Source: Candidatus Aminicenantes bacterium (lineage in GTDB: Bacteria; Acidobacteriota; Aminicenantia; Aminicenantales; Saccharicenantaceae). Taken from it: a stretch of DNA of 64,000 nt. Positions 15,704 to 51,571 of the stretch are shown here, piece by piece; the stretch's first letter is position 1, and each line of letters starts with the position of its first letter. The notes beneath the pieces are model-generated. The model was not told the origin of the DNA. It was given only the letters and a program-made list of their open reading frames with translations, and made no database searches. Location: assembly GCA_963736255.1 (NCBI GenBank), contig CAVTOI010000003.1, positions 1,684,400 to 1,748,399 on the forward strand. The letters run 5' to 3'. The position numbers were made by a program, and so were the translations under genes.

Positions 15704-15706
15704 ACC

Positions 15707-27962: not shown

Positions 27963-27981
27963 GAAAGCCCCCCGACCGGCC

Positions 27982-29031: not shown

Positions 29032-29034
29032 CCG

Positions 29035-31386: not shown

Positions 31387-31531
31387 GTTCCTCGGACTCC
31401 CGGCCTGACCGCTCGTTTTGCGGCCTTCGGCCTTTCGTTCCGTCCGTGATGTTATCATAATCGCCCCGGCTGTCCGGACCCCTTTTTTGACAAGGATTTT
31501 CGTTCTGAATTATCATAGGCCCCGATCGATC

Positions 31532-32719
31532 ATGGATATCAACGCCAGAATCGCCAAGGCCGTCGAAGATCGCCGGACCGAGATCCTCGAGCTGAGCCGC
31601 AAGATCCACGCCGACCCCGAGCTTGCCTTCGAAGAGGTACGGACATCGCGCCTGCTCCAAGCGGTCCTTCTGGCCGAGGGCTTCGACCTCTCCCCCGCCT
31701 CCGAAGGGCTGCCGACCTCGTTCCGGGCCGTATTCGGTCCCTCTCCAAACGGTCCCCGGGTGACGTTCACGGCCGAGATGGACGCTCTCCCTGGCCTGGG
31801 GCACGCCTGCGGCCACAACATCATCGGCACGGCCGGGACCTATGCCGCCATCGTCCTGAAATCCGTCCTGGGTTGCGATATCCCCGGGACGATCGAGGTC
31901 GTCGGGACTCCGGCCGAGGAGCGCGGCAGCGGCAAGGTCCGCATGATCCAGGACGGGATCTTCTCCCGATCGGACGTCGTTCTCCAGATCCACCCCCACT
32001 CGATAGACACCGTCATCGGCCAGGCGCTGGCCCGGCGCTCGCTCATCGTCGAGTTCTTCGGCCAGAAGGCCCACGCCGCGGCCGCGCCCCTCCAGGGCCG
32101 GAACGCCCTCGACGCCCTGGTCCTCTTCTATCATTCGGCCGCCCTGCCGCGGACAAAATTCCCGGCGGGAACCCTCTTTCACGGCATCATCGAATCGGGC
32201 GGCGAGGCGCCGAACATCATCCCGGATTACGCCCGCGGCCGGTTCTCCCTTCGCTCCGACACCATGTCCAAGCTCGGGAGCCTCGTCGCCGAGGTCAGGC
32301 GCCTCGCCGAAAGGGCCGCTGAAGAAACCGGATGTCGAGCCAAGATCAGCGAGCCCGGGCCCGGGGTAACGACCTTCCGCCGCAACCGTGTCCTCGAAGA
32401 GATCTTCGCCCCGCTGTTCGTGGAACGGGGCCGGTCCGATCCGGCAAAAGTCCGGGAGACCTACGGCTCGACGGATCTGGCCAATGTCTCCTGGGTCGTC
32501 CCGACGATCGAGCCGATGATCAAGGCCAGCGACTTCCCCATCCACACCGAGGGCTTCGCCCGCGATGCCATAGCGGCCGGCGGCGAGAAGGCCCTCCTCG
32601 ACGGCGTCTACTTCCTGGCCGCCGCGGCGGCCCGCATCCTGACCGGGCCCCCCCTCCTCGAGCGCGTCCGCGCGGATTTCCGGGCCAAGGTAGAGGACGC
32701 CCCGGAAGGGACCGCCTGA
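31532..32719 (+). CDS. M20-family amidohydrolase/peptidase (M20D, aminoacylase or hippurate-hydrolase-like)
   Basis: MDINARIAKAV...; metal ligands HACGHN...E..G; a TTGACA promoter-like box at 31487. Confidence 0.85.
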   Translation: MDINARIAKAVEDRRTEILELSRKIHADPELAFEEVRTSRLLQAVLLAEGFDLSPASEGLPTSFRAVFGPSPNGPRVTFTAEMDALPGLGHACGHNIIGTAGTYAAIVLKSVLGCDIPGTIEVVGTPAEERGSGKVRMIQDGIFSRSDVVLQIHPHSIDTVIGQALARRSLIVEFFGQKAHAAAAPLQGRNALDALVLFYHSAALPRTKFPAGTLFHGIIESGGEAPNIIPDYARGRFSLRSDTMSKLGSLVAEVRRLAERAAEETGCRAKISEPGPGVTTFRRNRVLEEIFAPLFVERGRSDPAKVRETYGSTDLANVSWVVPTIEPMIKASDFPIHTEGFARDAIAAGGEKALLDGVYFLAAAAARILTGPPLLERVRADFRAKVEDAPEGTA

Positions 32720-32732
32720 GGCCTCCGTCCCC

Positions 32733-33650
32733 ATGAGAAGCCTCCTCGATTTCGGCAGGAAGTCCGGCGCGGTCACCGTCGTGATCACGGATTCGGGCCT
32801 CGGCGGCCTCCTCGTCTGCGCCGACCTCGACCGCCGGCTGCGGGAGACCGCCGGGGAAGGCAGCGTCCGCCTCATCTACGTCAACGCCTGGCCTGACGCC
32901 CACCATGGCTACAACGACCTGCCCGATCTCGCCGCACGCGCCGCGGTCTTCGACGGGGCGCTGGCCGCGATGACGGCCTTTCATCCCGACTTCGTCCTCA
33001 TCGCCTGCAACACGCTGTCGGTGATCTACGAGGCCACGGCCTTCAGCCGGGCCCCCGGCGTCCCCGTGACAGGCATTCTGGAAGCCGGCACCGAGCTTTT
33101 CTTCGAGGCCCTGGCCCGGGACCCCGATGGCGTCCTGGCACTGTTCGGGACACGGACGACCATCGGTTCGGGCGAGCACGTCCGGAGGCTGGCCGAGAGG
33201 GGTATCGAGCCGAAGCGGATCGTCGCCGAGCCGTGCCACGGCCTGGCCGCGGTCATCGACAAGGACCCCGATTCTCCGCTGATCCCGGGCCTCGTCGATG
33301 AGTGCGTCCTTCGGGCCGCGCCGAGGCTCCCGACCGCGGCGCTACTCTATGCCGGGCTCGCCTGCACCCATTACGCCTACGTCGCCGAGGCATTCCGGAC
33401 GGCGCTTTGCCGGCACACCGGAGCGGAGATCGAGATCCTCGACCCCGGCCGGCGTCTTGTCGAAGTCCTCATGAGTGGGATCGGCCATCGGCGGACTGTC
33501 AGCGGAGACAGGGACATCGCCGTCGAGGTCGTCTCCAAAGTCGATCTGCCGGAGGCCCAACGGCAGGCCGTGGCGCGGCGCATCGAACCCGTCTCGGCCA
33601 CGACGGCCCGCGCCTTGCTCGAATACCGCCGGATACACGATCTTTTCTGA
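32733..33650 (+). CDS. Asp/Glu racemase-family protein (MurI-like glutamate racemase paralogue)
   Basis: DSGLGGL N-motif with paired catalytic Cys motifs ACNTLS and ACTHY. Confidence 0.75.
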   Translation: MRSLLDFGRKSGAVTVVITDSGLGGLLVCADLDRRLRETAGEGSVRLIYVNAWPDAHHGYNDLPDLAARAAVFDGALAAMTAFHPDFVLIACNTLSVIYEATAFSRAPGVPVTGILEAGTELFFEALARDPDGVLALFGTRTTIGSGEHVRRLAERGIEPKRIVAEPCHGLAAVIDKDPDSPLIPGLVDECVLRAAPRLPTAALLYAGLACTHYAYVAEAFRTALCRHTGAEIEILDPGRRLVEVLMSGIGHRRTVSGDRDIAVEVVSKVDLPEAQRQAVARRIEPVSATTARALLEYRRIHDLF

Positions 33651-33662
33651 GGGAGAACCGCC

Positions 33663-34646
33663 ATGAAGATACTGCTCCTGACCGGCCCCGGCGGCGACGC
33701 CCAGGGCTGGGGCGACATGAAGGTCACCGAATCCATGCGCGAGGCCACGGAATCCCTCGGCCACCCGACCCGGATCGCCCAAGTCGCCGACGAAGCGGAG
33801 TTATTCCGCCTCGTCGACAAGCCCGATTTCGACATCGTCTGGAGCGCCCTCTACCACATCACGACGAACGAAGCGTTCATCGGACGGAACGCCGCCGGGA
33901 CCTGGGTCGCCGACGTTCTCGACGAAAGACAGATCCCCTACATCGGCTCGAACAGCCGGACGATGCGGGCCATGATCGACAAATTCGAGACCCACGAGAT
34001 CCTGGCCGCGGGGGGGGTCGCCGTCCCGGCGCACGTCCTCCTCCATTCGGGCGACGACGTTTCGATGGTCACCTATCCCGCCTTCGTCAAGCCGATCTGC
34101 GAATCGCGGTCGGTCGGCATCTCCGACGAAAGCGTCGTGCACAACGAGGAGGAGCTGAGGCGGCGCGTCGCCTTCATCGAGAAGGAGTTCGACGAGCCGG
34201 CCCTGGTCGAGGAGTTCCTCCCGGGCGACGAATACACGGCCCTCATCGTCGGGAACGGCAAGACCCGAGAGTGCCTGCCCGGCCTGGTCACGGTCGAGGA
34301 CACGCACTACAGGAATTATCGCATCCTGCGGAGCGACCTCAGGGGCGTCGGCCTGACGAGGATCAGCCTGGCCGGGGCGAGAACGGATGAAGCCCGGATT
34401 CTCGGCGACGCGGCGGCCGAGGCCATGGGCTGCCTCGACCACGTCCGCATCGACATGCGCGTCGACCGGACCGGGAAGCTTCGCATCATCGAGGTCAACG
34501 GCATCCCCGGGCTCAAGCCCCACAAGAGCTGGGCGCCGCAGATCTACACGCTCTACCACGGCTCGCCGCTCGGCGAGGGTGAGGATTACCGGCAACTCAT
34601 CGGCGCGATCGTCGATTCGGCCGGCCGGCGCTACGGGTTCGCCTAG
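33663..34646 (+). CDS. ATP-grasp ligase, D-Ala-D-Ala-ligase-like
   Basis: Ddl-like N-domain; ATP-grasp core EEFLPGDEYTALIVG ... IEVNGIPG. Confidence 0.75.
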   Translation: MKILLLTGPGGDAQGWGDMKVTESMREATESLGHPTRIAQVADEAELFRLVDKPDFDIVWSALYHITTNEAFIGRNAAGTWVADVLDERQIPYIGSNSRTMRAMIDKFETHEILAAGGVAVPAHVLLHSGDDVSMVTYPAFVKPICESRSVGISDESVVHNEEELRRRVAFIEKEFDEPALVEEFLPGDEYTALIVGNGKTRECLPGLVTVEDTHYRNYRILRSDLRGVGLTRISLAGARTDEARILGDAAAEAMGCLDHVRIDMRVDRTGKLRIIEVNGIPGLKPHKSWAPQIYTLYHGSPLGEGEDYRQLIGAIVDSAGRRYGFA

Positions 34647-34650
34647 GCCG

Positions 34651-35823
34651 TCAGTTAGCCTTCGGCGTGAGCGGCTTCGTGAGCCACTCGTCGATGAGGC
34701 GGGTCCAGGCCGGCCGCGCGGGGGCCGGTTTCTCGGACATGAACCGCGTCAGGGCGTCGCGCCAGAGCTCGGCGTGCTGCAGGGTCGTGATGCGGTTGCG
34801 GAACATGGCCGCGCCCTTCCGGGGCTCCGAATCCATCTTTTCGAGGATACCGAGGACCTCCTTCTTGAAACCCTCGGGGCCGTAATAGGCAAGATAGGCC
34901 TGCCAGGACTCGGCGACCCCGCGCGCGGTCTTGAGCGGACCGGAAACGCGGCGGAGCGCCTCGCGGAACGAGCGCTCCTCTCCCCTGTCGAGCGGACGGA
35001 GCCCGTTCTCGGCGATGCGATAGGGATGGATCCTGTAAGAGGCCAGACAGCCGGCGCGCACGTCGAGCGAGAGGCAGAACCCGGTCCGGCGGTACTGGAG
35101 CTCGGGCGGCTGGAAGAAGGCGAAGTTCCCCAGGCTGTAGGCGATGAGCCGGCCGCGGCGCATTTCCAGGCCCTGAGGAACATGCGGGTGATGGCCGACG
35201 ACGCAGTCGGCACCGGCGTCCGAGAGGGCCCGGAAGGCCGCGACGACATAAGGCGGCGGGAACGGGACGTACTCGAGACCCGCATGCCCTATGGCGATGA
35301 CGAAGTCGCCCCGTTTCTTGGCCTTGCGGATGAGGTGGGCCAGCCGATCGATCTCCCAGCCGCAGACGCCCGGCCCCCCCGCGGACGCCGTGAGGTCCTC
35401 GCCTTCGCCGAAATTGACGATGGTGAGGCGCGCACCCTTGACGGTCAGTCTCAGCGGGGCTGTGGCCTCCTCGAACGTCATCCCCGCACCGATCGTTCTT
35501 ATCCCATTCCGGCGCAGGACCTCGAGCGTCTCCCGGAATCCGGCCAGGCCATAATCGAAGACATGGTTGTTGGCGAGCGTCGCCACCTCGAACGGGACCG
35601 CAGCGAGAGCCGCGGCGTGGGCCGGGAGCCCCTTGAAGACGGCGCCGCTCTTCCAGACGGGCTTGCGGGCCGCCGTCAGGGCGCATTCGCAGTTGACGAT
35701 CCTGAGGTCGGCGGCGCGAAGGATCGGGAGCACGTCGCCGTAGACAGACTCCGGTTCCCGGGATATGACGGGTTCGAGGGCCCGGATAGGCGCCCAATCC
35801 GAAGCGACAAGGATCCTGGTCAT
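34651..35823 (-). CDS. CapA-family metallophosphatase (poly-gamma-glutamate biosynthesis accessory protein family)
   Basis: MTRILVASDWAPIR... calcineurin-like motifs GNHVFDYG...GHHPH. Confidence 0.8.
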   Translation of the reverse strand: MTRILVASDWAPIRALEPVISREPESVYGDVLPILRAADLRIVNCECALTAARKPVWKSGAVFKGLPAHAAALAAVPFEVATLANNHVFDYGLAGFRETLEVLRRNGIRTIGAGMTFEEATAPLRLTVKGARLTIVNFGEGEDLTASAGGPGVCGWEIDRLAHLIRKAKKRGDFVIAIGHAGLEYVPFPPPYVVAAFRALSDAGADCVVGHHPHVPQGLEMRRGRLIAYSLGNFAFFQPPELQYRRTGFCLSLDVRAGCLASYRIHPYRIAENGLRPLDRGEERSFREALRRVSGPLKTARGVAESWQAYLAYYGPEGFKKEVLGILEKMDSEPRKGAAMFRNRITTLQHAELWRDALTRFMSEKPAPARPAWTRLIDEWLTKPLTPKAN

Positions 35824-35824
35824 G

Positions 35825-37126
35825 CTATTTCATGAGCTCCGCAATTCGCTTGGCATGATCGCCGATGACGGCCAGGGTCGAGGCATCGGCGTCATAGACC
35901 GAGTACCAGCCGGCGGGTTCGTGCGGCGGGTCCCCGACCCACGTCATACCCGGCCTGGCTTCGCCTGCCCAGGCCCAAAAGTTGTCCCCCATCGCCGGGC
36001 CGCCTGACGCGATCGAGTCCATGACGAGCTTGTAGAGGGCCGCATAATAGAGATCCTTATTCGTCGTCGGCGAGGCGGGGTCGAGGTTGTTCTTGCGGGG
36101 CAGCCACTCGCGGGCCAGGCCGAACTCCTCGAGGACGAGGGGTTTCCCCATACCCTTCGCTTCCCTGGCGTGCTCCAGGAAATAGGCGATGGCCAGCGGC
36201 TCGGCGGCCTTGTAGGTCGCGGGGCGCTTCGGATCGTACCAGCCCCAGTTCTGGGGCCAGATGTGGATGGTGACGTAATCGATGCCGGGAGAGCTATGGG
36301 TCCGGACGAAATCCTGCGTCGGCTCGCCGGGCGGCTTGCCCTCCGAGCCCGTCGTCACCATGTGGTTCGGGTCGAGGGACTTGATGTAGGCGGCCGTGTC
36401 GTCGATCCAGCTCTGGGGGTAACGCCGCGGCTCGTTCCCAAGCTCCCATGAGAAGACGGCCGGATCGTCGCGGTATTTGACGCGGGTATAAGGATTGGTC
36501 CGGCCGGTGATCATGGCGATGTGGTCCCGGAACCAGTCCTGGCACTCCGGGTAGGTATAGAACTTCGCCGCATAGGTGATGAATTTCTCGTAATCCCCGG
36601 GATACGGGATGGGCGTCTTCTCGCGCCAGGAGACGTACTGGGCCATGCCGCCCGACCACTGCCAGAAGTTGTTAAGGACCATGACCGCGCGCATCCCTCG
36701 CTTGCCCATCTCGGCCAGCAGGAAGTCGAGGCCGTCGAGGACGCTGCCGTCGTATTCTCCCGGGGACGTCATCAGGGCCGGGACCGTCCGGTAAGGCTCG
36801 GTATTTGGGCCCTCGGAGGAAGCCATGACGCGGAGATTGGTCAGGCCGAGGTCGCGCATACGGTCGAGCTCCCGCAGGAGCCGGGCCCTGTCGCCGCTCT
36901 CGCCGTCGACGCCGAGGTTCATCCCCTGCCAGAAGTTGGCCCCGACGAAGTAATAGGGTTTTCCGGCCAGCACGAATCGGCCGTCCTTGACAGTCACGAA
37001 CGAGGCGGCGGCCGGAGCGTCCGTGCCCGGCTCCTGGCCCTTGGCCGCGGGACCCTGGTCCCGGTCGCCCCGGCAGCCCCAGGCGGCCAGGCTGAACAGA
37101 AGAACGAGGAGGACTGTCTTGCGCAT
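35825..37126 (-). CDS. glycoside hydrolase family 5 lipoprotein (mannanase-like)
   Basis: Lipobox AAWGC; GH5 catalytic motifs WELGNEPR and LEEFG. Confidence 0.8.
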   Translation of the reverse strand: MRKTVLLVLLFSLAAWGCRGDRDQGPAAKGQEPGTDAPAAASFVTVKDGRFVLAGKPYYFVGANFWQGMNLGVDGESGDRARLLRELDRMRDLGLTNLRVMASSEGPNTEPYRTVPALMTSPGEYDGSVLDGLDFLLAEMGKRGMRAVMVLNNFWQWSGGMAQYVSWREKTPIPYPGDYEKFITYAAKFYTYPECQDWFRDHIAMITGRTNPYTRVKYRDDPAVFSWELGNEPRRYPQSWIDDTAAYIKSLDPNHMVTTGSEGKPPGEPTQDFVRTHSSPGIDYVTIHIWPQNWGWYDPKRPATYKAAEPLAIAYFLEHAREAKGMGKPLVLEEFGLAREWLPRKNNLDPASPTTNKDLYYAALYKLVMDSIASGGPAMGDNFWAWAGEARPGMTWVGDPPHEPAGWYSVYDADASTLAVIGDHAKRIAELMK

Positions 37127-37268
37127 GGCGTTTGCTCCCTCCGCGGTCGGATGCCGGAATCATAGACCGCGGCCGAGGAGACTGTCAACCCGATCACGGC
37201 CTTGACTTGGGTCCGGGGGGCCGATACTATCGCGTTGTCCGCATCGAAATCCGCCAAGGAGGCCCTCC

Positions 37269-39678
37269 GTGAATAAAGCCGGAATAGCCCGCGTATCGCT
37301 CTTGGTCGTGATCTTAATGGTTGTCTTGGCTGCGGCCGGTTGCTCCACCGCCGCGTCAACGGGACGCAAGACGACCGGCCCGGAGGTCGTCCCGGCCCCG
37401 GTACGCCTCGAAACCCGCCCGGGGACCTTCGCTCTCGGGCCGTCGACGCGGATCGTCATCCTCGAAAGCCAGGTCGATCTCCTGCCCGTGGCCTCCGCCC
37501 TCAAAGACATGCTCCGTCGTCCGACCGGATACGACTTCGGCATCGATGTCTCGACCGAGCTCGCCGGAGAGATACCGATCGCGGCGGGCTCCATCATCCT
37601 CCACCTCGAGGACCTGGGAGACCGTCTGGGAGACGAAGGCTACCTCCTGGACATTGAGACGGACAAGATCCGGATCCGGGGCGCCGCCCCCGCCGGGATC
37701 TTCTACGGCGTCCAGACCCTCCGTCAGCTCCTGCCCGCCGCGATCGAGGGCGCGGCGGGGGCCGCGGCGACGCCGGCCTGGACGGTCCCGTGTGTCAGCG
37801 TCGAGGACAAGCCGCGGTTCTCCTGGCGGGGAGGGATGCTCGACTGCTCGAGGCATTTCTTCCCCAAGGAATTCGTCAAGCGCTGGATCGACATCCTGGC
37901 CATGCACAAGCTGAACACCTTCCACTGGCATCTGACCGACGACCAGGGTTGGCGCATCGAGATCAAGAAATATCCGAAGCTGACCGAGATCGGCGCCTGG
38001 CGCGTCGACCGTGAGGACCAGCACTGGAACGCCCGGGAGCCTCAGCAGCCGGGCGAGGCCGCGACCTACGGCGGCTTCTACACCCAGGACGACATCCGCG
38101 AGATCGTCGCCTACGCCGCGGCCCGCTACGTGACCGTCGTGCCCGAGATCGAGATGCCCGGTCATGCCAAGGCGGCCCTGGCGGCCTATCCGGAATTCTC
38201 GTGCACTGGCGGACCCTTCACCGTCACGCCGGGCGGCTACTGGCCCATCACGGACATCTTCTGCCCCGGCAACGAGGGCACGTTCGCGTTCCTGGAAAAC
38301 GTACTGGCCGAGGTCGGTCGAGCTTTTCCCGGGCTCATTCATCCACATCGGCGGCGACGAGGCCAACAAGACCGAGTGGAAGCGCTGCCCCCAGTGCCAG
38401 GCCCGGATCAAGGCCGAGGGGCTCAAGGACGAAAGCGAGCTCCAGAGCTATTTCGTCCGGCGGATCGAGAAGATCCTCAACGCCAAGGGCCGGCGTCTCA
38501 TCGGCTGGGACGAGATCCTCGAGGGCGGCTTGGCCCCCCAGGCGACGGTCATGTCCTGGCGCGGCACTGAAGGCGGCATCGCCGCGGCCAAGGCCGGGCA
38601 TGACGTCGTCATGTCGCCGACCTCCCACTGCTACATCGATTACTATCAAGGGAACCCGGCCTATGAGCCCCCGGCCATCGGCGGCTACCTCCCCCTCAGC
38701 AAGGTTTATTCCTTGGAGCCCGTACCCGATGTCCTGACCGAGGCGGAAGCGGCCCACATCCTGGGCGCTCAGGTCAATCTCTGGACCGAGTATGTGCCGG
38801 ACGGGAAGCACGCCGAGTACATGGCCCTGCCCCGCCTGGCCGCCCTGTCCGAGGCGGTCTGGTCGCCGAAGAGTGCGACGGGACTGGAACAGATTCTCAG
38901 CCGGCGTCCAAGGGCTCCTCGCCCGCTATCAGGCCGCCGGCCTGAACTTCGCCCGGAGCGCCTATCTCGTCGGCATCCGAGCCGCCGTGTCGCCCGGCTC
39001 GAAACAGGCCACCATGACGCTCGAGACCGAGATCCCGGGGCTCGACATCCGCTATACGACGAACGGCACCGATCCCGGTCCCTCTTCGAAGCGCTATAAG
39101 AAGCCCATTGTGCTCAGGAAGACGACCGAGATCCGGGCGGCGGCCTTCGACGGGACCGAGCGTCTGAGCCCGGCCGTCGTGACCGAGCGCTTCGTCGTCC
39201 ATGCCGCCTCTGGCCGCACGCCGGTGCTGACAGCGCCGTTCAGCCCGGACCGCGCGGGCGGCGGCGACACCGCCCTCACGGACGGCCTCCTCGGATCGCG
39301 GAATTCCGAGGACGGACGCTGGCAGGGCTTCGAGGGCGTCGACCTCGACGCCGTCGATCGATCTCGGCGCGCCTCGGTCCGTGCGCACGATCGCCGTGAG
39401 GTGCCTGCAGAACATCAACTCATGGATCTTCCTGCCGGCGTCGGTCGAATTCGCCGTCTCTTCCGACGGCCTGACCTACGAGACCGTGGCCGAGGTCAGG
39501 AACGACGTCTCGCCTCGCCTGGCCGAAGCGGTCATCAAGGGATTCGAGGCCGCGCTTCGAGGCGCGCCAGGCCCGATACGTCCGGGTCCGGGCCAAGACC
39601 ATCGGCGCCGTCCCCGACTGGCATTACGGGGCGGGCGGCAAGTCCTGGCTCTTCGCCGACGAGATCGTCGTCGAATAG
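37269..39678 (+). pseudogene. GH20 beta-N-acetylhexosaminidase lipoprotein gene broken by at least four +1 frameshifts
   Basis: Frame 0 runs to ...ENVLAEV at ~38318 (extra G in GAGGTCGGTCGAG). It continues in frame 1 (ELFPGSFIHIGGDE...AVWSPK), frame 2 (DWNRFSAGVQGLL...) and frame 0 (RTIAVRCLQNINSW...), with a further shift at ~39555 before a discoidin-like end ...YVRVRAKTIGAVPDWHYGAGGKSWLFADEIVVE*. Confidence 0.75.
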
Positions 39679-42116
39679 ACGATCTCCTGGCCGGGCCGTG
39701 TCTCGAGCTCGATCATCCCCTGCCGGGGAAGAGCGCTCGACGGGTCCGCGCCGGTGACCTTGACCTCGCGCGCGGCGAAGGGATCGGCCAGCCGCAGCCG
39801 CCCACCCGCCTTCGAACGGACCCGGAGCTCGACGATCCGTCCCCCGCTCCAGTCGGCGTCGAGCTCGAAGCCGCCCCGGGCGCATAGCCCCTTGAACCGG
39901 CCCTCGGCCCAGGCCGCGGGCAGCGCCGGGAGGACCTGGATGAAGCCCCGATGGGACTGGACGAGCATCTCGGCGATGCCGGCCGTCCCGCCGAAGTTCC
40001 CGTCGATCTGGAAGGGAGGGTGGGTGTCGAAGAGGTTCTTGAGGGTCGATCTCCGGAGGAGCGTCAGCAGGTTCCGGTGGGCCGTTTCGCCCTCGAGCAG
40101 CCGCGCATAGAAGCTGACGATCCAGGCCCGGCTCCAGCCGGTCTGGCCGCCGCCATGCTCGAGCCGGCGGGCGATCGTCCGGCGGGCCGCTTCGAAGAGC
40201 TCGGGCGTTTCGGGCGTTATCTGGGCCAGGGGGTAAAGGGCCAGCATATGGGACATGTGGCGATGCCCGGGCTCGGCCTCGTCGTAGTCCCTTGATCCAT
40301 TCACGGAGATTGCCGTGCTTGCCGATCTGGAGGGGCGGCAGCTGCTTTTCGAGCTCTTTCAGCCGGGCGGAGAATTCCGCGTCGACACCGAGGATCCCGG
40401 CGGCGCGAATGCAATTCTCGAACAGGGCCCGGGCGATCTCGACGTCGATCGTCGCGGCGTAGGTCAGCGATTCCGGCTTTGCCCGTCTTCGGGTCGATGT
40501 AGGCGTTCTCCGGCGAATGGGAGGGCGCGGTGACCAGCCAGCCGTCGGGGGACGGGACGAGGAAGTCGGCGACGAATTCGGCCGAGCCCTTCATGATCGG
40601 GTAGGCGACGTTCGCGGAGAAAGGCCGTGTCGCCGGTGAACTCGTAGTGGTCCCAGAGAGGGAAGGTCATCCACGGTCCGGCCATGGGCGAGACGCCCCA
40701 GACGCCGTCGGCGACGCCGGTCCGTCCGAAGGGGTCGGTCAGATGGTGGAGGGTCCAGCCGCGGGTGCCGTAGGTCTTGCGGGCCGTCACGGCGCCGGGG
40801 ACGGTCAGGCGGCCGACGAAGTCCGCCAGGGGTCCGACGGTCTCCGGGAGATTAGTGACTTCGGCCGGCCAATAGTTCATCTGCAGATTGATGTTGGTGT
40901 GGAAGTCGGAATTCCAGGCCGCCTCGAAGTCCTGGTTCCAGATCCCCTGGAGATTGGCAGGAAGCGACGGCCGGCCGGCGCGACGAGCCCATGAGCAGGT
41001 AGCGGCCGTACTGGAAGTAAAGGGCCGCCAGGCCCGGGTCCCCGCCGCCGGCCTTGACCCTCTCGAGCCGTTCGTCGGTCGGCAGGCCGGAGGCGTCCGG
41101 CGAGCCGCCGAGGTCGAGGGAGACGCGATCGTAGAGCGCCCGGTGTTCGGCGATGTGGCGGTCCCGGAGCTCCCGAAAGGAGAAGCGCCGGGCCCGGGCC
41201 AGGGTCTCGGCGGTCTTCGCGACCGGGTCGGCGCCGGCGTCGAAGTCGAGCCGGGCCGGGTCATAGTCCGTCGCCGCCGCCAGGAGGATGGTCACCTCCC
41301 GCGCGCCCTTGACACGGACGGCGTCCCCGTCCGCCTTAACGCGTCCCCCTTTGGTGCGCACGCTGAGCGAAGCCGCGAATCGCATGTGCTCGCCCCCGGG
41401 CCCGCTGAGAGGATCCGCCTTGTCGGCGATGCGGCCGGAAAGGACGATCCCGTTGCGGGAGATCGTCCGGACCGTGGCGTCCCTGGCCCTGGTCAGGCGA
41501 ATGGTCCCCGTGATCCCGGCGCCGCGACCGGCCGCTATCCCGACGGCCAGGACATCGTCCGTCGCCGAAGAGAAGACCTGCCGCTCGATCACGACGCCAT
41601 CCGGCGTCTCGCAGACGACCGAGGCGATGCCGTCCCTGAGATCGAGGTCCCGCTCGTACTCGGCTCCCGCCCGGACGTCCTCGAGATCGATGAGAAGGTC
41701 GGCCAGCGGCTGGTAGGACCTTATCCGTGGCGGCGTTCCGAGCAATGACTTTTCGGCCAAGGCCGAGGCCCGGGCGTGATCGCCCTCGAAAAGGGCCTGC
41801 CGGATGAGGGGTAAGGCCTCGAGGGCCGCCGGGTTGTTGTTGTCGACGGGCGAGCCGGCCCAGACCGTCTCTTCGTTGAGCTGGAGCTTCTCGTGTCCGG
41901 AGTACCCGAAGACCATGGCCCCGAGCCGGCCGTTCCCGACGGGAAGGGCTTCGTCCCAGTCGGCGGCCGGCTGGCGGTACCAGAGCCGGTCCGGACCGGC
42001 GATCCGGCTCATCCCCGTGGTGCCCGTCGGATCGGGCGAGCAGGCGCCGAGGCAAAGGAGCAGCGCGGCGAGGGCAAAACAGGGAGTAGCGAGAAGGCGG
42101 CAGGGTTTGGCGTTCA
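39624..42116 (-). pseudogene. GH95 alpha-L-fucosidase-like lipoprotein gene broken by at least three frameshifts
   Basis: The N-terminal GH95 domain (LWYRQPAADWDEALPVGNGRLGAMVFG), the middle (SLPANLQGIWNQDFEAAWNSDFHTNINLQMNYWPAE) and the C-terminus (DYDEAEPGHRHMSHMLALYP...) lie in three different frames, ORFs 40852..42507, 40464..41264, 40301..40594 and 39624..40304. Confidence 0.75.
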
Positions 42117-42176
42117 TGGCCTCGTTATAACGCCGGCATCCAGGGGTGTCAATCAAGGCGGAGGGCGACAATATTA

Positions 42177-43304
42177 TCAGTCGAGCTTCTTCTGGAAGCG
42201 GGCGACGCTCAGGGCCAGGATGAGCGTCCCCAGGACCATGAGCGCCGCGGCCTGGGGCCAGAGGTGCCGCCAGCCCGCCCCCTTGAGCATGATGCCGCGG
42301 ATGATGACGAAGAAATAGCGGAGCGGGACGATCGTCGTCACCGCCTGGAAGAACTTGGGCATGTTCTCGATGGGAAAGACGAAGCCGCTGAGCATGATCT
42401 GGGGCATCATGAAGAAGAGCGAGGTCAGCATGGCCTGCTGCTGGGTCCGGGAGATCGTCGAGATGAAGAGGCCGACGCCCAGGGTGTTGAGCATGAAGGC
42501 CACGCACAGCGCGAAGAGGAGCGGCACACTGCCCCGGACCGGGACGCCGAACCAGCCTCGGGCTACGGTGATGACGAAGGTCGCGTCGACGAGCCCGATA
42601 AGGACGAACGGCAGGAGCTTGCCGATGATGAGCTGGTACGGACGGACCGGCGTCACGATGAGCTGCTCCATCGTCCCCGCCTCGCGCTCCCGGACGATGC
42701 CGATCGACGCCAGAACCGTGGTCATGATCATCAGGATGAGGCCGAGGACGCCGGGGACCATGAAGTTCCGGCTGCGCAGCTCCGGGTTGTACCAGACCCG
42801 GACCTCGGCCTTGACCAGCACCGGCTTCAGGCCGAGCCCCCGGGCCCGCTCGAACGTCTCCAGGATGATCTTCTGGTTGTGCCGCGCCGCGATCATCGTT
42901 CCGTAGTTGACGCCGATCGACGCCGACTGGCTCTCCGAACCGTCGGCGATGAGCATGAGGGAGGCCCGCCTCCCCGCCGCGAGGTCGTCGCCGAAGCCTC
43001 TGGGGATGACGAAAGCCATGGCCGCGTGGCCGTTGTCGAGGTAGCGATCGATCTCGGCCATGCGCTCGACCCGGGCCGCGACCGTGAAATAGCCGGAATT
43101 CACATACTCGTCGATGAGCCCTCGGCTTTCCACCGATCGGTCCATGTCGCAGACGACCGAGGGGATGTTCTTGACGTCGAGGTTCGCGGCATAGCCCAGG
43201 AGGAGGAGCTGGAGAATGGGCGAGATGAAGATGACCGGAAAGAGCTTCGGGTCGCGGCGAAGCTGGAGGAACTCTTTCCAGAGTATGGACAGGATGGCCC
43301 TCAT
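42177..43304 (-). CDS. ABC-2 type transporter permease
   Basis: MRAILSILWKEFLQLRRDPK... six TM helices; start overlaps the upstream stop (ATGA). Confidence 0.8.
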   Translation of the reverse strand: MRAILSILWKEFLQLRRDPKLFPVIFISPILQLLLLGYAANLDVKNIPSVVCDMDRSVESRGLIDEYVNSGYFTVAARVERMAEIDRYLDNGHAAMAFVIPRGFGDDLAAGRRASLMLIADGSESQSASIGVNYGTMIAARHNQKIILETFERARGLGLKPVLVKAEVRVWYNPELRSRNFMVPGVLGLILMIMTTVLASIGIVREREAGTMEQLIVTPVRPYQLIIGKLLPFVLIGLVDATFVITVARGWFGVPVRGSVPLLFALCVAFMLNTLGVGLFISTISRTQQQAMLTSLFFMMPQIMLSGFVFPIENMPKFFQAVTTIVPLRYFFVIIRGIMLKGAGWRHLWPQAAALMVLGTLILALSVARFQKKLD

Positions 43305-44438
43305 GCGGCCCTCCCCGCCTGCCGCCGTCCCCGCTCGCCGCCCCGGCGGAGCAGGATCACGCTCAAGGCCAAGGTCGACGCGGCGAACGCGGCGAGCAGG
43401 AGCATCTGTTCCCAAAAGGCCTGAAGCCCGGCGCCCTTGAGGATGACCGACCGCAGGACGACGAGAAAATACCGGGCCGGGACGAGATAGGTCACGGCCT
43501 GGACGGCCATGGGCATGTTCCGGATCGGGAAGACGAAGCCGGACAGGATGAAGGTCGGCAGGATCGTCGTCAGGACCGAGAGAAGGAACGCGACCTGCTG
43601 GGTCCGCGTGAGGGCCGAGATGAGGATGCCCTGGCCGAGCCCGGAGATGAGGAACAGGACCATGCCCAGCAGCAGAAGAAGATAGTTGCCTTTGACCCCC
43701 ACGCCGAAGAGGACCCAACCGAGCCCCAGGACGAGATGGGCCGAGAGCGAGGGAGATCACGACGTAGGGAACGAGCTTGCCGACGATGAGCGCCGAGGCC
43801 GGCAGGGGCGAGACGGCGATCTGTTCCATGGTCCCCCGTTCTTTCTCCCTGACGATGGAGAAGGCCGTCGATGTCGTCAGGATGACCATGAGAATGAAGG
43901 CCATCAATCCGGGCAGGAGGAACCGGGCGCTCTTGAGCTCGGGGTTGTACCAGACGCGGACCTCGGTCGCGAGGGGAAGCGTCACGCTGCCCGCCCCGCG
44001 GCGCTCCAGCGCTTCGAGCGTCGTCCGCTGCGAGTAGCTCTGGAGGATGGCCGCCGCGTAGCCCGCGGCCGTCGTCCCGCTCATGGCGTTGGCGCCGTCG
44101 AGGAGGAACTGGACCGAGGGGCTCCGCCCGGCCAGGAGGTCCTCGGAGAAGGTCGCCGGGATAACCAGCGCGGCCTTGATCTTCTCCCGGGCCATGAGGT
44201 CGTCGATGTCCCCGGTCCGGTCAAGCGTCGCCTTGACGTCGAAATACTCCGTCGTCCGGAACTTTTCGGCCAGCTCCCGGCTCAGGCGGCTGCCATCCAG
44301 GTCGACGACGGCCAGGGGGACGTGCTTGATGTCGAAGTTCAGGGCGAAGCCGAATACGATGAGCAGGAAGGCCGGGATGAAGATCATGAAGACGAGCGAG
44401 CGGCTGTCCCTCCTGATCTGGCGGATCTCCTTCCGCAT
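43301..44438 (-). CDS. ABC-2 type transporter permease with an apparent frameshift near 43735
   Basis: The N-terminal part (MRKEIRQIRRDSRSLVFMIFIP...) is in the frame of the 1084-aa ORF. The C-terminal TM helices (...GNYLLLLLGMVLFLISGLGQGILISALTRTQQ...) are in the frame of ORF 43301..43702. Confidence 0.6.
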
Positions 44439-45431
44439 GACCGGACCGATGAAGGCGTGAGGCGCGGTCTTCACGGCGCCGCCTCCGCGCTCGCCCCGTC
44501 CCGGGGTCTGTTCCTCGATCTTGTGAATGAAGACGTCCTCGAGCGACGGGACGATCCTGTCGATCCGGTCAGGCGTGATGCCTTTCGCGGCCAGCCGCTC
44601 GCGGATGAGCCGGCGGCCCTCCTCTTCGTCCGCGACGCCGACGTGAAGGGCGGTCCCGAAGATGGACGTCTCCAGGACCCAGGGCTCCTTCCGGAGGATC
44701 GCGAGGGCGTCGACGGCCCGGTCCGTCGCGACCTCGAGGATGGGATTGCGGATGACCTCCTCCTTGAGCTGGCGCGGGCTCCCGCCGGCCACGATCCGGC
44801 CGGCATGGATGAGCCGGATGTCGTTGCAGTATTCCGCCTCGTCCAGGTAGTGGGTCGTGACGAAGACGGTGACCTTCCGTTCGGAAAGCTCGTTGATGAG
44901 CTCCCAGAAGCGGCGGCGCGAGGCCGGGTCGACCCCGCCCGTGGGCTCGTCGAGGAAGACGATCTCAGGCTCATGGAGGACGGCGCAACCGAGCGCCAGC
45001 CGCTGCTTCCAGCCGACCGAGAGCGTTCGCGTCAGGCTCCGCTCCCGTCCCTCGAGCCCGGCCAATTCGAGGACCCAGGCGAGCCGCGCCTGAATGGCCT
45101 TGGCTGCGAGCCCATAAATCCCGCCGAAGAAGCGGATGTTCTCGAGAACGGTCAGGTCCTCGTAGAGGGAGAACTTCTGGGACATATAGCCGATCACCCG
45201 TTTGACCTTCTCGGGCTCGCGGCCGACGTCGAACCCGCCGACCGTGGCCGTCCCCGAGGTCGGGTCGAGCAGGCCGCAGAGCATACGGATCGTCGTCGAC
45301 TTGCCCGCCCCGTTGGCGCCGAGGAAGCCGAAGATCGCGCCGCGTCGGACGTCGAAGCTGACGGAGTCGACCGCCGTGAAGCCGCCGAACATTTTGGTCA
45401 GCGACTTGACGGTGATCGAATGGTCGGGCAC
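44439..45431 (-). CDS. ABC transporter ATP-binding protein; no in-frame stop before the permease (fusion or frameshift)
   Basis: Walker A GANGAGKST, signature LSVGWKQRL, Walker B IVFLDEP. A TGA in the adjacent frame lies 8 codons before the permease ATG. Confidence 0.75.
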
Positions 45432-45458
45432 GATCCTCTCCTCCGCTCTCCCCTGCTC

Positions 45459-46793
45459 TCAAACCCCCAAAGCCTTTTCCAGCCGGGCCTGAGCCAGGAC
45501 CTGGTCGATCGCGGCCTGGGTCCGGCCGAGCTTGGCCTGGAGGAGAGCCACTTCGGCGTCGAGGACGTCCGCGCTCAAGGCGACGCCCTGCTTGAATCGC
45601 TCGCGTGTCACCCGGAGGTTCTCCTCGGCCTGGCCGACGGCCTGGCCGGCGACGCGGACCTTCTCTCCGGCACGGGCCAGGCTCAGCCGGCACTGCGTGA
45701 TCTCGAGAACGGCCTGGTCCTCGAGGGCCTTGCGGGCGTCGTGGGCCTGGCCCAGCCGGGCCTCGGCCTGTTCCGCCTGGCGCTTCGTCTGCCCCCAATT
45801 CCAGACGTCGAAGGATACGGAGACGCCCACGTCCCAGGTCCCTTTGAAGCGGTCGAGGGCGGGCAGGAAGCGCGGGTTCGGACGCAGGTAGTAATAGTTG
45901 CCGGTCAGGAAGACTTGAGGATAGAAACCGGACCGGGCCGCCTTGACTCCCTGCTCGGCGGCGTTGATCCTGAACTCGGCCGATTTGATCTCCGGGCGCC
46001 TCGTCAGCGCCGTCTCGACCGAGGAGACCTCTGCGATCCCGGCGTCCTCCGGGAGCCGCGACGCCTGGCTCTCGACGGGCGTCGTCAGGTCGACGTCGGC
46101 ATCGAGCGGCAGGCCGATGAGGCTGACGAGCCCGGTCAGCGCGATCTCGGCCGCGTTGCGGGCGTCGATCCTCATGATCTCGGCGTTTGAAAGCTCGAGC
46201 TCGGTCCGAAGCACGTCGTTCCTGGTCACCAGGCCCTGATCGAAGAAGGCCCTGACGTCCTTAAGGTGCTCGGCGACCTGCCGGACGTTCTCCTCGATGA
46301 CCTTCTCGAATTCCCTGGCCCGGGCCAGGCCCCAATAGGCGTTCTTGAGCGCAAAGACGAGCTCGGCCCGGTCCTTGGCGAGGTCCTGGCCGGCCGCGGC
46401 CTCGAGCATCCGGGCGGACCCCTCGCCGGCCTGAAGCCGGAAGCCCATGAACAGCGGCTGCTGGACGCCGAGGCGCAGATTGAAATTGTTGAAATAGCTC
46501 TGCGAGACGACGACCGGGTTGGGAGAGATGGGCAGGGTCACCTGGAAGTCCGGCACTTCGCTCAGCCTGGTGTAACCGCCGCCGAGCTTGAGCGCGGGCA
46601 GGCGGCCGGCGGCGATCTCCCGGGCGTTGGCCGAAGCCGCTTCGAGCTTCAGGCGCGAGGCGTGGAGCCCCGGGCTCGACTCGAGCCCGGCGGCCAAGGC
46701 CTCCTCCAGGGACAGCGGCTTCTTCTGGGCACCCGCCGTGACCGGCAGGGCCAGAGAGATGGCGACGGCAAAGGTGAGGATCCTTTTGGTCAT
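45459..46793 (-). CDS. TolC-family outer-membrane efflux protein
   Basis: Signal peptide plus two OEP repeats; 444 aa. Confidence 0.85.
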   Translation of the reverse strand: MTKRILTFAVAISLALPVTAGAQKKPLSLEEALAAGLESSPGLHASRLKLEAASANAREIAAGRLPALKLGGGYTRLSEVPDFQVTLPISPNPVVVSQSYFNNFNLRLGVQQPLFMGFRLQAGEGSARMLEAAAGQDLAKDRAELVFALKNAYWGLARAREFEKVIEENVRQVAEHLKDVRAFFDQGLVTRNDVLRTELELSNAEIMRIDARNAAEIALTGLVSLIGLPLDADVDLTTPVESQASRLPEDAGIAEVSSVETALTRRPEIKSAEFRINAAEQGVKAARSGFYPQVFLTGNYYYLRPNPRFLPALDRFKGTWDVGVSVSFDVWNWGQTKRQAEQAEARLGQAHDARKALEDQAVLEITQCRLSLARAGEKVRVAGQAVGQAEENLRVTRERFKQGVALSADVLDAEVALLQAKLGRTQAAIDQVLAQARLEKALGV

Positions 46794-47722
46794 GAAAGGC
46801 CTCCGGAGGATTCAGTGGTGATGGAGATGAAGACGTTCTCGAGGGACGGCGTGAGGCGACGTTCCGCGAGGACCGGGATCCCGGCCCCGGCCAGGGCGGC
46901 TTCGATAAAGGGGATTTGCGCTTCGGGATCGTCCACGACGACGTTCAGGCGGTCCCCGAAGAGCTGGACCTCACGGATGCCGGGAAGGGTCTTGAGGATG
47001 CCGAAGGCCCGGCGGATCTCCGGGCAGACGATCTCGACGACCGTCCCCCGCATCAGGGCCTTGACAGCCTGGGGCGTATCCGCGGCGATGAGCCGCCCGC
47101 CGGCGATGAGCCCGACCCGCGACGACCGCTCGGCCTCGTCCATGTAAGGCGTGGACATGACGATCGTGACCCCGTCTTTGAGAAGAGCCGAGAGGATGGC
47201 CCAGAAGTCGCGCCGCGAGACCGGGTCGACGCCCGTCGTGGGCTCGTCGAGGAATATCAGCCGGGGCGTGTGGACGAGAGTGCAGGCCAGGGCCAGCTTC
47301 TGGCGCATGCCGCCCGACAGGCGCTCGGCCAAGCGGCCGCGGAAAGGCGTGAGCCGGGTGAACTCGAGCAGCTCCTCGCGGCGCTTGCGGAAGTCCCGGA
47401 CGAGGTGGATCTCGGCGAAGAACTCGATATTCTCGTCGACGGTCAGGTCGCCGTAGAGGCTGAATTTTTGCGACAGGTAGCCGATGCGGTTCCTGATCTC
47501 CCCGGCCTGCCGGACGAGGTCATAGCCCAGCACCGTGGCCCCGCCCGCCGTCGGCGGCAGAAGGCCGCAGAGCATGCGGATCGTCGTCGTCTTGCCCGCG
47601 CCGTCCGGTCCGACGAGCGAGAACATCTCCCCCTCGCGGACCTCGAGGTCGAGCGAACGGACGGCTTCGACGGACTCGAAGCGCTTCGCGAGTCCGCGGG
47701 TTTCGACGGCGAGCGGGCCCAT
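46790..47722 (-). CDS. ABC transporter ATP-binding protein
   Basis: Walker A GPDGAGKTT, signature LSGGMRQKL, Walker B IFLDEPT. Confidence 0.85.
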   Translation of the reverse strand: MGPLAVETRGLAKRFESVEAVRSLDLEVREGEMFSLVGPDGAGKTTTIRMLCGLLPPTAGGATVLGYDLVRQAGEIRNRIGYLSQKFSLYGDLTVDENIEFFAEIHLVRDFRKRREELLEFTRLTPFRGRLAERLSGGMRQKLALACTLVHTPRLIFLDEPTTGVDPVSRRDFWAILSALLKDGVTIVMSTPYMDEAERSSRVGLIAGGRLIAADTPQAVKALMRGTVVEIVCPEIRRAFGILKTLPGIREVQLFGDRLNVVVDDPEAQIPFIEAALAGAGIPVLAERRLTPSLENVFISITTESSGGLS

Positions 47723-47736
47723 GCCTTGGCGCCCTG

Positions 47737-48714
47737 TTAGCGCCCTTCCGGAGCGGGCCGGAGGACCGCATCGGCGGGCAGGCCCGGCTTGAGCAGCCCG
47801 TCCTTGTTCCCGATCTCGACCTTGACCCCGAAGACGAGCTTGACCCGGTCCTCCTTCGTCTGGACATTCTTGGGCGTGAACTCGGCCTCGGGCGAGATGT
47901 AGGTGATCTGGCCCTCGAAGGGCCTGTCGGGGAAAGCATCGATCCTGATCTCGGCCGTGTCACCGAGCCGGACGCGTCCGAGCTCCTTCTCGGTGACATA
48001 GATCATGACGTAGACGCTGTCAAGGTCGGCCAGGGTGAGGATGGTCGACCCGGGCGTCACCAGCTCGCCCGCCTCGAAGGCTTTGTGGGTGACGATGCCG
48101 CCGGCGGGGGCCGTGACGGTCGAGTCGGCGATCGTCTTGGCCAGGAGATCGGCCCCGGCCCGGGACTGGGCCAGTCGGGCTTCGGCAGCCTGGATCTCCT
48201 CAGGCCGGGCCAGCCGGCGGACCTTGCTCAGCGCTTCGGCGGCGCCGCTCTGCTGGGCCGTGGCGACAGTGAGCCGGGCCTCGGCGTCATCGCGCTGCTT
48301 CGACGTCACGCTCCCCGTCGCGAAGAGCTCGCGCATCCGGCGGGCGTCGTCCGCGGCGGTCTTGAAGGCCGAATCGGCCTGCTTCAGCGCGGCTTCCGCC
48401 TGCCGGATGTCCTCGCTCCTCGCCCCTTTGACGAGGAGGGCCAGCTGGGCTTCGGCCAGACGGACGCCGGCCTCGGCTTGACGGAGCTGGATGTCGGCCG
48501 TCGCGTGATCGACCGTGGCCAGGATATCCCCGGGCTTGACCCTCGCCCCTTCATCGACGGCGAGCGTGAGGAGCTGGCCCGCGACCTTGGAGGCGACGTT
48601 GACCTCGACCGCCTCGATCGTTCCCGATGCCGTGATGACGGCCTTCTCCGACGGGGAGGAGCAGGCCAGGCCCGCTGCGGCGACAAGCGCGAGCGCCGCG
48701 ATCTTCATTCTCAT
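47737..48714 (-). CDS. HlyD-family periplasmic adaptor (membrane fusion protein)
   Basis: Lipoprotein-like signal (LACSS), coiled-coil and barrel-sandwich hybrid domains. Confidence 0.85.
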   Translation of the reverse strand: MRMKIAALALVAAAGLACSSPSEKAVITASGTIEAVEVNVASKVAGQLLTLAVDEGARVKPGDILATVDHATADIQLRQAEAGVRLAEAQLALLVKGARSEDIRQAEAALKQADSAFKTAADDARRMRELFATGSVTSKQRDDAEARLTVATAQQSGAAEALSKVRRLARPEEIQAAEARLAQSRAGADLLAKTIADSTVTAPAGGIVTHKAFEAGELVTPGSTILTLADLDSVYVMIYVTEKELGRVRLGDTAEIRIDAFPDRPFEGQITYISPEAEFTPKNVQTKEDRVKLVFGVKVEIGNKDGLLKPGLPADAVLRPAPEGR

Positions 48715-49397: not shown

Positions 49398-49402
49398 AGT
49401 TT
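49370..49402. promoter_or_regulatory. probable TetR operator, imperfect palindrome AAACTATGGAAAC-N7-GTTTTCACAGTTT, next to a TATAAT box
   Basis: The two 13-nt half-sites match at 11 of 13 positions as reverse complements and overlap the 5' end of the tetR-efflux operon. Confidence 0.5.
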
Positions 49403-49494
49403 TATTATAGGCCCGGATCGCCCTTTGTCAAGCGCGTTCCCCATCCCGGTATCGACGGCCCGATCTGGTCCTGTGCTATCATGATGTCACCTCG

Positions 49495-50073: not shown

Positions 50074-50080
50074 AACGAGA

Positions 50081-50172
50081 GGGTCAAACCTACACCTTTT
50101 TAGTTTTTAGTTTTTTCCGGCCGGAATTCATCCAGTTGCCCGGCAAAAACTAAAAAGGTGTAGGTTTGACCC
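50081..50172. repeat. AT-rich perfect hairpin: 28-bp stem, 36-nt loop, termini GGGTCAAACCT / AGGTTTGACCC
   Basis: Arm 50081-50108 is the exact reverse complement of arm 50145-50172. It lies between the convergent ydeI-like and GH109-like genes, and its termini and CCCTTCTT flank match the hairpin at 7066-7169. Confidence 0.8.
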
Positions 50173-50180
50173 CTTCTTCC

Positions 50181-51539: not shown

Positions 51540-51571
51540 AAGTCCTCCTGATGGATCCTAGTATGGCGGCC

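Follow-up and report, generated by a model that had tools for sequence, protein, structure and literature searches.

The window analysed here, a stretch of 64,000 nucleotides, lies on a 2.1-Mb contig of an environmental metagenome-assembled genome (MAG) of Candidatus Aminicenantes. It carries two convergent glycosidase genes, whose 3' ends overlap by 55 nt, next to the genes of an ABC exporter (Table 1). The first glycosidase gene encodes a GH20 protein with an N-terminus that resembles a lipoprotein signal (LAAAGC) and with the domains GH20b, GH20 catalytic (GGDE motif present), CHB_HEX_C and F5/8 type C. The second encodes a GH95 protein with the lipobox LGAC. Four genes of the locus are broken by frameshifts, and the breaks are genuinely present in the deposited sequence, since Pfam matches, a GC3 frame plot and a GC-periodicity HMM agree on them. 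The GH5 gene and the gene of a 783-aa protein beside the patch are intact, as a reading of the sequence only had already stated.

Table 1. Genes, inserted bases and SNP-dense tract at the locus, in positions of the window.
Feature	Position	Strand	Description
GH20 beta-N-acetylhexosaminidase gene	37269..39678	+	Pfam on fragments and corrected protein; 801 aa without the 4 spurious bases
Spurious base 1, GH20	38319	+	window GTCGGTCGAG; L001 GTC-GGTGAG; all others GTC-GTGGAG
Spurious base 2, GH20	38879	+	window GCGACGGG = L001 allele A + allele C of others
Spurious base 3, GH20	39355	+	window GTCGATC; L001 GTG-ATC; four others GTC-ATC
Spurious base 4, GH20	39554	+	window GCGCTTC; L001 GCC-TTC; four others GCG-TTC
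SNP-dense tract	37934..41074	none	window vs L001/L002 ~1.8%; flanks ~0.16%
GH95 alpha-L-fucosidase-like gene	39624..42117	-	Pfam on fragments and corrected protein; 829 aa without the 4 spurious bases
Spurious base 5, GH95	40294	-	window CCCTTGATCC = CCCTT-ATCC (L001/L002/L165) + CCTTG-ATCC (L083/L164/L010)
Spurious base 6, GH95	40476	-	window CCGGCTTTGCCC = CC-GCTTTGCCC (L001/L002) + CC-GGCTTTCCC (L010)
Spurious base 7, GH95	40614	-	window TTCGCGGAG; polymorphic Arg codon: AGG in L001/L002, CGG in L010
Spurious base 8, GH95	40967	-	adjoins a three-allele synonymous Ala site GCG/GCC/GCT
ABC-2 permease 2	42177..43304	-	375 aa, intact; falsely joined into a 1084-aa ORF
ABC-2 permease 1	43301..44474	-	390 aa in L002; broken at 43748
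Spurious base 9, ABC-2 permease 1	43748	-	window GAGAGCGAGG = L002 allele G + L010 allele C
ABC transporter ATPase	44471..45431	-	319 aa after correction
Spurious base 10, last codons of ABC ATPase	44492	-	window GCTCGCCCCG = GCT-GCCCCG (L002/L164) + GCT-CGCCCG (L083/L165)

Pfam searches place one part of the GH20 catalytic domain in ORF 37269-38570 (profile positions 1-160) and the other in ORF 38164-39099 (positions 156-347); CHB_HEX_C sits in a third frame (ORF 38792-39757), and the GH95 domains are scattered over four minus-strand ORFs. The frame switches were located by GC3 plot and HMM at 38316, 38873, 39358 and 39555 in the GH20 gene, at 40291, 40479, 40621 and 40955 in the GH95 gene and at 43749 in the ABC permease. 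Alignment to near-identical contigs gave the exact bases, with an uncertainty of up to 3 nt in their placement, and identified ten single-base insertions: four in GH20, four in GH95 and two in the ABC exporter. The sequence-only reading had counted at least four frame changes in the GH20 gene and at least three in the GH95 gene, and exactly four are located by alignment in the one and four in the other. It had also described the junctions as single-base indels in non-homopolymer sequence, which is correct, all being insertions, but its imperfect duplication of ~13 bp does not hold: tandem-repeat search and alignment resolve it into a native 12-nt imperfect repeat, TTCGAGGCCGCC/TTCGAGGCGCGC (FEAA/FEAR), and the insertion at 39554. 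The insertion at 44492 puts the ATPase stop codon out of frame and fuses the ATPase to the downstream frames, giving the false 1084-aa ORF at 42177-45431. The ten lesions span 6.2 kb across two unrelated gene sets, glycosidases and ABC exporter. Against the same comparators we found no indels in 25825-38318 (12.5 kb) or from 44493 to about 52100 (7.6 kb), and elsewhere in the window the HMM gives a single further possible frame switch, a candidate near 13000, so that the clustering of disruptions described before is real and falls at about 38.3-44.5 kb. For the window's first 25 kb, exact look-ups with the proteins 15125-15703 and 11411-12805 found no near-identical comparator.

Once the ten bases are deleted, the ORFs regain their full length and match Pfam profiles from end to end, and no premature stops or further lesions were found in the corrected genes. 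The corrected GH20 protein matches PF00728 over positions 1-347 of 348 (413 bits) and also PF02838, and has the motif HIGGDE; judged by its domains, catalytic Asp-Glu pair included, it is a predicted GH20 beta-N-acetylhexosaminidase. Its GH95 counterpart matches Glyco_hyd_65N_2 (PF14498), GH95_cat (PF22124, positions 2-408 of 408, 559 bits) and GH95_C (PF21307). It is by the same domain-based assignment a GH95 alpha-L-fucosidase / alpha-L-galactosidase with an (alpha/alpha)6 catalytic domain, the substrate being a prediction, and intact GH95 relatives have 829 or 843 aa.

All ten insertions are absent from the related contigs L001, L002, L083, L164, L165 and L010. In a six-sequence alignment the ten indels are without exception insertions private to the window, with zero deletions, and L001 and L002 are free of private indels. 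L001 is 99.5% identical to the window, and in both L001 and L002 the genes of GH20 (801 aa; the L001 orthologue is 98.8% identical), GH95, ATPase (319 aa) and permeases are intact. At 90% identity or more GH95 is unbroken in five other assemblies, and GH20 and GH95 are both unbroken in six to seven further Aminicenantes MAGs, in which the pair is conserved. The broken fragments (P0001, P0126 and P0128) were found solely on the 2.1-Mb source contig. The comparison with orthologous loci that the sequence-only reading had proposed thus returns intact orthologues in relatives, and the earlier framing of the locus as one for host glycans finds no support, the genome being an environmental MAG and the GH20-GH95 pair staying intact across Aminicenantes MAGs. 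Over 8.6 kb the branch of the window holds 10 insertions versus 3 derived substitutions, while the L001/L002 branch holds 31 derived substitutions and zero indels. In the SNP-dense tract the differences are mostly derived GC-to-AT changes on the L001/L002 side, most of them synonymous. We considered the synonymous excess (35/47) as proof of constraint on the window genes and discarded it, because the substitutions polarise mostly to the L001/L002 branch, so that the excess bears on that lineage; what does count for the window is that insertions outnumber substitutions 10:3 on its own branch.

We show here that the inserted bases carry a specific signature. Nine of the ten sit at positions that are polymorphic among the relatives, and the window holds both alleles in tandem. 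The local sequence of the window is that of L001/L002 with one base more, which recreates the allele of L083, L164, L165 or L010, and at seven sites the result is exactly the union of alleles that were sampled. At 39355 the window stacks the two alleles of a synonymous Val codon (CG; one haplotype has G, all others C), and at 39554, within the native repeat, those of a synonymous Ala codon. Site 38319 is a multi-nucleotide polymorphism (Gly GGT versus Val GTG) and may be a union with an unsampled, hypothetical GTC allele; an equally hypothetical, unsampled CGC allele could account for site 40614. Stacking was measured as delta = lev(W,C) - lev(A,C), with 20,000 random insertions as null: delta is 0 or below at 9/10 sites versus 14% of the random insertions (binomial P ~2e-7), and 40967 (delta = +1) is the sole site unexplained as an allele union. 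Unstacked transversion SNPs between the two haplotypes also exist, for example at 32692, 32936, 34141 and 36914. Homopolymer error was rejected, since no site lies within a run of three or more. Several insertions create CpG or GATC, and an error of Nanopore reads at methylation motifs was therefore considered, but the ten contexts share no common motif.

Two further contigs of the lineage carry the same kind of error. In L083, which belongs to a neighbouring ENA assembly accession, about 14-17 single-base insertions are private, versus 2 deletions, and many of the insertions stack G/C alleles. The Microflora Danica MAG L010 contains two +1 insertions in its own GH20. Both contigs probably came out of the same pipeline as the window. 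The long-read MAGs of Microflora Danica rest on Nanopore reads only, with Flye as the assembler and one round of Medaka (PMC12313526). Long-read metagenome assemblers are reported to concatenate variants of sub-populations and to create indels that disrupt ORFs (bioRxiv 10.1101/2025.04.22.649783). L001, L002 and L164 are three related contigs that were all obtained from sample ERZ25039554, although the window contig's own sample may be a different one. L001 ends at window position 40865, and L002 joins foreign sequence of 36% GC at 39651. A scan of Metagenome_contigs with the corrected GH95 returned relatives of at most 59% amino acid identity and no second-haplotype sequence.

Taken as a whole, the sequence comparisons argue that the breaks are a collapsed two-haplotype consensus error in a long-read metagenome assembly and not gene decay, a reading to which we give a probability of roughly 0.9. 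The organism almost certainly has intact genes for GH20, GH95 and the ABC transporter. The patch of low-quality assembly that had been offered as one of two explanations is supported, in the sharper form of stacked alleles from two haplotypes. At about 38.3-44.5 kb, reads of two closely related strains living side by side would have gone into one consensus. Where the strains differed by an ordinary SNP, one allele would have won, while at some transversion or multi-nucleotide differences consensus or polishing may have kept one base per haplotype, with a net +1 stacked allele as the result. The relatives and the contig naming point to an assembly of the Nanopore/Flye/Medaka type. Contigs of the alternative haplotype break off at 39.65-40.87 kb, and reads of that haplotype across the break might have been recruited to the main contig, which would make the patch local. 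It seems plausible that a consensus model in which a read deletion scores cheaper than a G/C transversion would favour the two-base solution.

Generic noise of long reads, that is random unpolished indels in a thinly covered stretch without any strain mixing, would account for the tight clustering of the errors and for the noise that runs throughout L083. Such noise would however include deletions and changes of homopolymer length, random substitution errors would be expected alongside, and it would not coincide with inter-strain polymorphism; here 10/10 lesions are insertions outside homopolymers, no such substitutions accompany them and 9/10 match an alternative allele. We regard this explanation as quite improbable. 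Recent pseudogenisation, in which real frameshifts would have inactivated GH20, GH95 and the ABC exporter in a decaying glycan-utilisation locus, as the sequence-only reading had considered, is very improbable. The frameshifts are indeed in the deposited sequence, their contexts are unlike those of classic Nanopore homopolymer error, and four neighbouring genes are broken while nearby genes are intact. Yet ten insertions and zero deletions run against the deletion bias of bacterial pseudogenes, which Mira, Ochman and Moran are said to have reported in 2001. Stop codons are absent, the window branch has just 3 substitutions, and the broken genes belong to two unrelated units. The recreation of another strain's allele beside a polymorphic base is far beyond chance, and we know of no mutational process with this effect. 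The lesions are confined to a single contig and not reproduced in independent sequence of the lineage. Sampled relatives are intact at these ten sites (the other +1 insertions being those of L083 and of the L010 GH20), and the signature recurs in other contigs, with hardly a gene there left unaffected.

Two further readings would leave the frameshifts real. Heteroduplex mismatches misprocessed in vivo after recombination between diverged strains could leave tandem alleles at transversion mismatches, and if so, one recombination event would inactivate several genes in a single tract; we consider this a remote prospect. Expression of the genes by programmed ribosomal frameshifting or transcriptional slippage has next to no probability. 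The coding signal does continue over each junction, but the ten sites in four genes differ in context and have no slippery motif in common, and every orthologue is single-frame, on which grounds we reject it.

Trigodet et al. (bioRxiv 10.1101/2025.04.22.649783) described comparable cases, in which variants of two sub-populations both appear in one contig and the indels corrupt ORFs, and which arise where related populations co-exist. Their chimeric joins with a GC shift have a parallel in the comparator contig L002. Their cases mostly concern long variable regions of PacBio HiFi assemblies that were found by read clipping, whereas in the window the concatenation is at single-nucleotide scale, is net +1 and was detected from sister haplotypes without reads. 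Frameshifted, truncated proteins are also known from Nanopore-derived MAGs (Sereika et al., 2022, PMC9262707), where coverage sets consensus quality and microdiversity affects MAG quality. The classic residual Nanopore errors, however, are homopolymer-length changes, mainly deletions, unlike the ten insertions described here, which fall on polymorphic sites. In decaying loci, such as those of host-restricted pathogens, genuine pseudogenes likewise show adjacent genes with multiple frameshifts and domain remnants in several frames, but true decay brings deletions, stop codons, IS insertions and raised non-synonymous change and is reproducible across isolates, none of which is seen in the window.

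The frameshift cluster is hence best explained as an artefact of low biological interest and not as a real feature, and nothing supports a loss of glycan use by this Aminicenantes genome. Pseudogene calls call for caution, because public long-read MAGs, including species representatives like L010, can, where strains co-exist, hold clusters of false frameshifts, which mimic pseudogene-rich 'decaying loci'. Given a close relative, the diagnostic needs no reads: +1 insertions only, at polymorphic sites, with alleles in tandem and no accompanying substitutions. This stacked-allele signature could serve to flag or repair affected regions.

The window has about 66% G+C with a GC3 near 0.9, and therefore the coding frame is readable from composition alone. 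Frame switches were located by a GC3 frame plot and a seven-state GC-periodicity HMM, which place the onset of a plus-strand coding signal near 37.3 kb, frame jumps at ~38316, ~38873 and ~39358, a passage to the minus-strand gene at ~39555, and minus-strand jumps at ~40291, ~40479, ~40621, ~40955 and then 43749. In Pfam searches, the catalytic domain of the beta-N-acetylhexosaminidase (GH20) is divided over two overlapping ORFs, one matching profile positions 1-160 and the other 156-347; CHB_HEX_C lies in a third frame, and four minus-strand ORFs together hold the pieces of one alpha-L-fucosidase-like (GH95) protein. In the 1084-aa ORF 42177-45431 an ABC ATPase and two ABC-2 permeases are falsely joined, and the first permease has its C-terminus in a different frame. 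Thus, the frame disruptions that the sequence-only reading claimed for GH20 and GH95 are borne out by all three analyses.

Two near-identical contigs of ENA sample ERZ25039554 define the lesions. L001 (contig_43672), recovered by exact-protein match to the intact GH5 neighbour, aligns to window 25825-40852 with 99.5% identity, and L002 (contig_51837), recovered likewise through the intact outer-membrane-factor gene, aligns to 39651-52520. Between them, the two contigs carry intact genes for GH20 (801 aa), GH95 (843 aa), the ATPase (319 aa) and the permeases (390 and 375 aa). Over ~26 kb, with the diverged L002 end past ~52.1 kb left out of the count, every indel is a single base added in the window, ten in all. 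The observation holds and is slightly enlarged, to 4 + 4 + 2 lesions, where at least four frame changes had been claimed for GH20 and at least three for GH95. Deletion of the ten bases yields GH20 of 801 aa, GH95 of 829 aa and ATPase of 319 aa, free of stop codons and further lesions and with end-to-end Pfam matches. When six sequences are aligned, none of the ten insertions occurs outside the window, which itself has no private deletions; L001/L002 show no private indels whatever.

Single-base insertions in the window with their local alleles, and the neighbouring operon
Feature	Window position	Window	L001/L002	Other haplotypes
GH20 (+)	38319			
GH20 (+)	38879			
GH20 (+)	39355	GTCGATC	GTG-ATC	GTC-ATC (all four)
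GH20 (+)	39554	GCGCTTC	GCC-TTC	GCG-TTC (all four)
GH95 (-)	40294	CCCTTGATCC	CCCTT-ATCC	CCTTG-ATCC
GH95 (-)	40476	CCGGCTTTGCCC	CC-GCTTTGCCC	CC-GGCTTTCCC
GH95 (-)	40614			
GH95 (-)	40967			
Permease 1	43748	GAGAGCGAGG	GAGAG-GAGG	GAGAC-GAGG (L010)
Last ATPase codons	44492	GCTCGCCCCG	GCT-GCCCCG	GCT-CGCCCG
Efflux-type operon (-): TetR regulator, HlyD/YbhG-like adaptor, ABC ATPase (310 aa), outer-membrane factor (444 aa), second ABC ATPase (319 aa), two ABC-2 permeases	42177-49427			

A genome-collection scan assigns the locus to Candidatus Aminicenantes. Comparison with orthologous loci, proposed in the sequence-only reading, finds the convergent GH20-GH95 pair kept and single-frame in L003, L004, L006, L007, L008 and L019, and intact also in L164 (ERZ25039554 contig_51835, 113 kb) and L165 (a JGI metagenome contig). 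Broken fragments, searched as 90%-identity protein clusters, occur only in the 2,100,303-bp source contig and in the related contig L083. GH20 and GH95 share 55 nt at their 3' ends (39624-39678), an overlap of the same length as between the called genes of L164 and L165, where it is kept. The conserved efflux-type operon lies directly upstream of GH95 on the same strand, and its gene order is identical in L002, L164 and L165.

Within +/-8 nt of every site but 40614, the window equals L001/L002 plus exactly one base, and the added base recreates the allele of other haplotypes at the adjoining polymorphic position. For each site we calculated delta, the Levenshtein distance of the window to a relative minus that of L001/L002, taking the minimum over four relatives (L083, L164, L165, L010); +1 is the value expected of a random insertion. 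Delta was <=0 at 9/10 sites, against a fraction of 0.14 among 20,000 random insertions into L001/L002 (binomial P ~2e-7), stable at flanks of 6, 8 and 10 nt. Seven sites exactly combine two sampled alleles, and 38319 and 40614 would fit a union involving a putative unsampled synonymous allele. The one site unaccounted for, 40967, adjoins a three-allele synonymous site.

The same error mode is found in other contigs. L083 (ENA ERZ25039513 contig_39708) has nearly all locus genes in fragments and, over an 8.6-kb stretch (37-45.6 kb), carries ~14-17 private single-base insertions versus 2 deletions; many of these insertions place G and C together where relatives differ. Its 20.6-kb locus corresponds to window 29622-50222, with 132 gap positions against the window and with HlyD, ABC ATPase, OEP, permease, GH95, GH20, PGA_cap, racemase and M20 fragmented. 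L010 (CAWJKR010000005.1) belongs to the GTDB species-representative Aminicenantes MAG MFD05674.bin.2.115; its GH20 (10001-12405) has two +1 insertions, which follow the equivalents of window 38037 and 38162, and therefore the called protein P0003 is only 379 aa. The adjoining GH95 of L010 is intact (829 aa). Microflora Danica long-read MAGs derive from Nanopore-only data assembled with Flye and one Medaka round (PMC12313526), and a benchmark of long-read metagenome assemblers describes chimeric contigs with GC shifts, indels that break ORFs, and haplotyping errors that concatenate sub-population variants (bioRxiv 10.1101/2025.04.22.649783).

Genuine gene decay, which the sequence-only reading had left open beside low-quality assembly, is very improbable. 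Judged with four outgroups, the window branch has 3 derived substitutions in 8.6 kb versus 10 insertions, and the L001/L002 branch 31 derived substitutions without indels. Real bacterial pseudogenes are deletion-biased, and insertions to substitutions of 10:3, without deletions or stops, is unlike the product of decay. Window-private insertions that recreate alternative alleles at polymorphic sites, and the same error mode in L083 and L010, also contradict it. Plain low-coverage noise is very improbable as well, leaving the match with polymorphic sites and the lack of deletions unaccounted for. Programmed frameshifting we regard as next to negligible, given ten sites without a common motif and single-frame orthologues. 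The assembly-patch reading is upheld by the match with alternative alleles at nine sites and by the same error mode in L083 and L010, and now has a candidate mechanism.

Window and L001/L002 differ by ~1.8% in a SNP-dense tract (37934-41074, 3.1 kb) that spans the GH20 3' two-thirds and the GH95 3' part. The figure is ~0.16% for the 12 kb to the left, and differences are very few in 41.1-50 kb. Tract differences are mostly derived GC-to-AT on the L001/L002 side and largely synonymous; L001/L002 alleles common to L164/L165 at ~10 tract sites suggest recombination between co-existing lineages. Overall, 35/47 differences are synonymous, an excess dropped as evidence on the window because derived substitutions fall mainly in the L001/L002 lineage, where it mostly reflects selection. 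We infer that reads of two such strains, ~0.16% apart generally, were stacked onto the main contig around the tract. The majority allele would be taken at most SNPs. A consensus of two bases at some of the G/C transversions and multi-nucleotide differences would fit both read sets, costing each read a cheap one-base deletion rather than half of them an expensive transversion, and would leave a +1 union. Such a consensus would give only insertions, at non-homopolymer sites, crossing functional boundaries and without accompanying substitutions. Localisation may reflect minor-haplotype reads that cross the break separating the two short contigs of that haplotype and so are placed on the main contig, assuming that the window shares an assembly with these contigs.

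L001 terminates at window 40865 and L002 has a foreign join at 39651; thus, the ERZ25039554 assembly graph is broken exactly within the locus. The final 508 bp of L002 (12866-13373; 36% G+C versus ~66% elsewhere in the contig) have no match in the window or relatives and look like a chimeric contig end. The join swaps out the last GH95 residues, and the protein ends ...STMISSAKYKINEK... (843 aa versus 829). Outside the patch, an ADP-forming acyl-CoA synthetase-like gene (12750-15740, minus strand; ATP-grasp_5, CoA_binding_2, Succ_CoA_lig) shows a GC-periodicity frame switch at ~13000, possibly an eleventh frameshift: a stop at 12821 ends the alternative frame, and the open frame continues to 12750, overlapping a convergent gene. 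A search for comparator sequence for this gene found none.

Judged by these comparisons, the broken GH20, GH95 and ABC genes are very probably not a biological feature of this organism. Their sole wider value is a signature by which strain-collapse errors in long-read MAGs can be recognised without reads.
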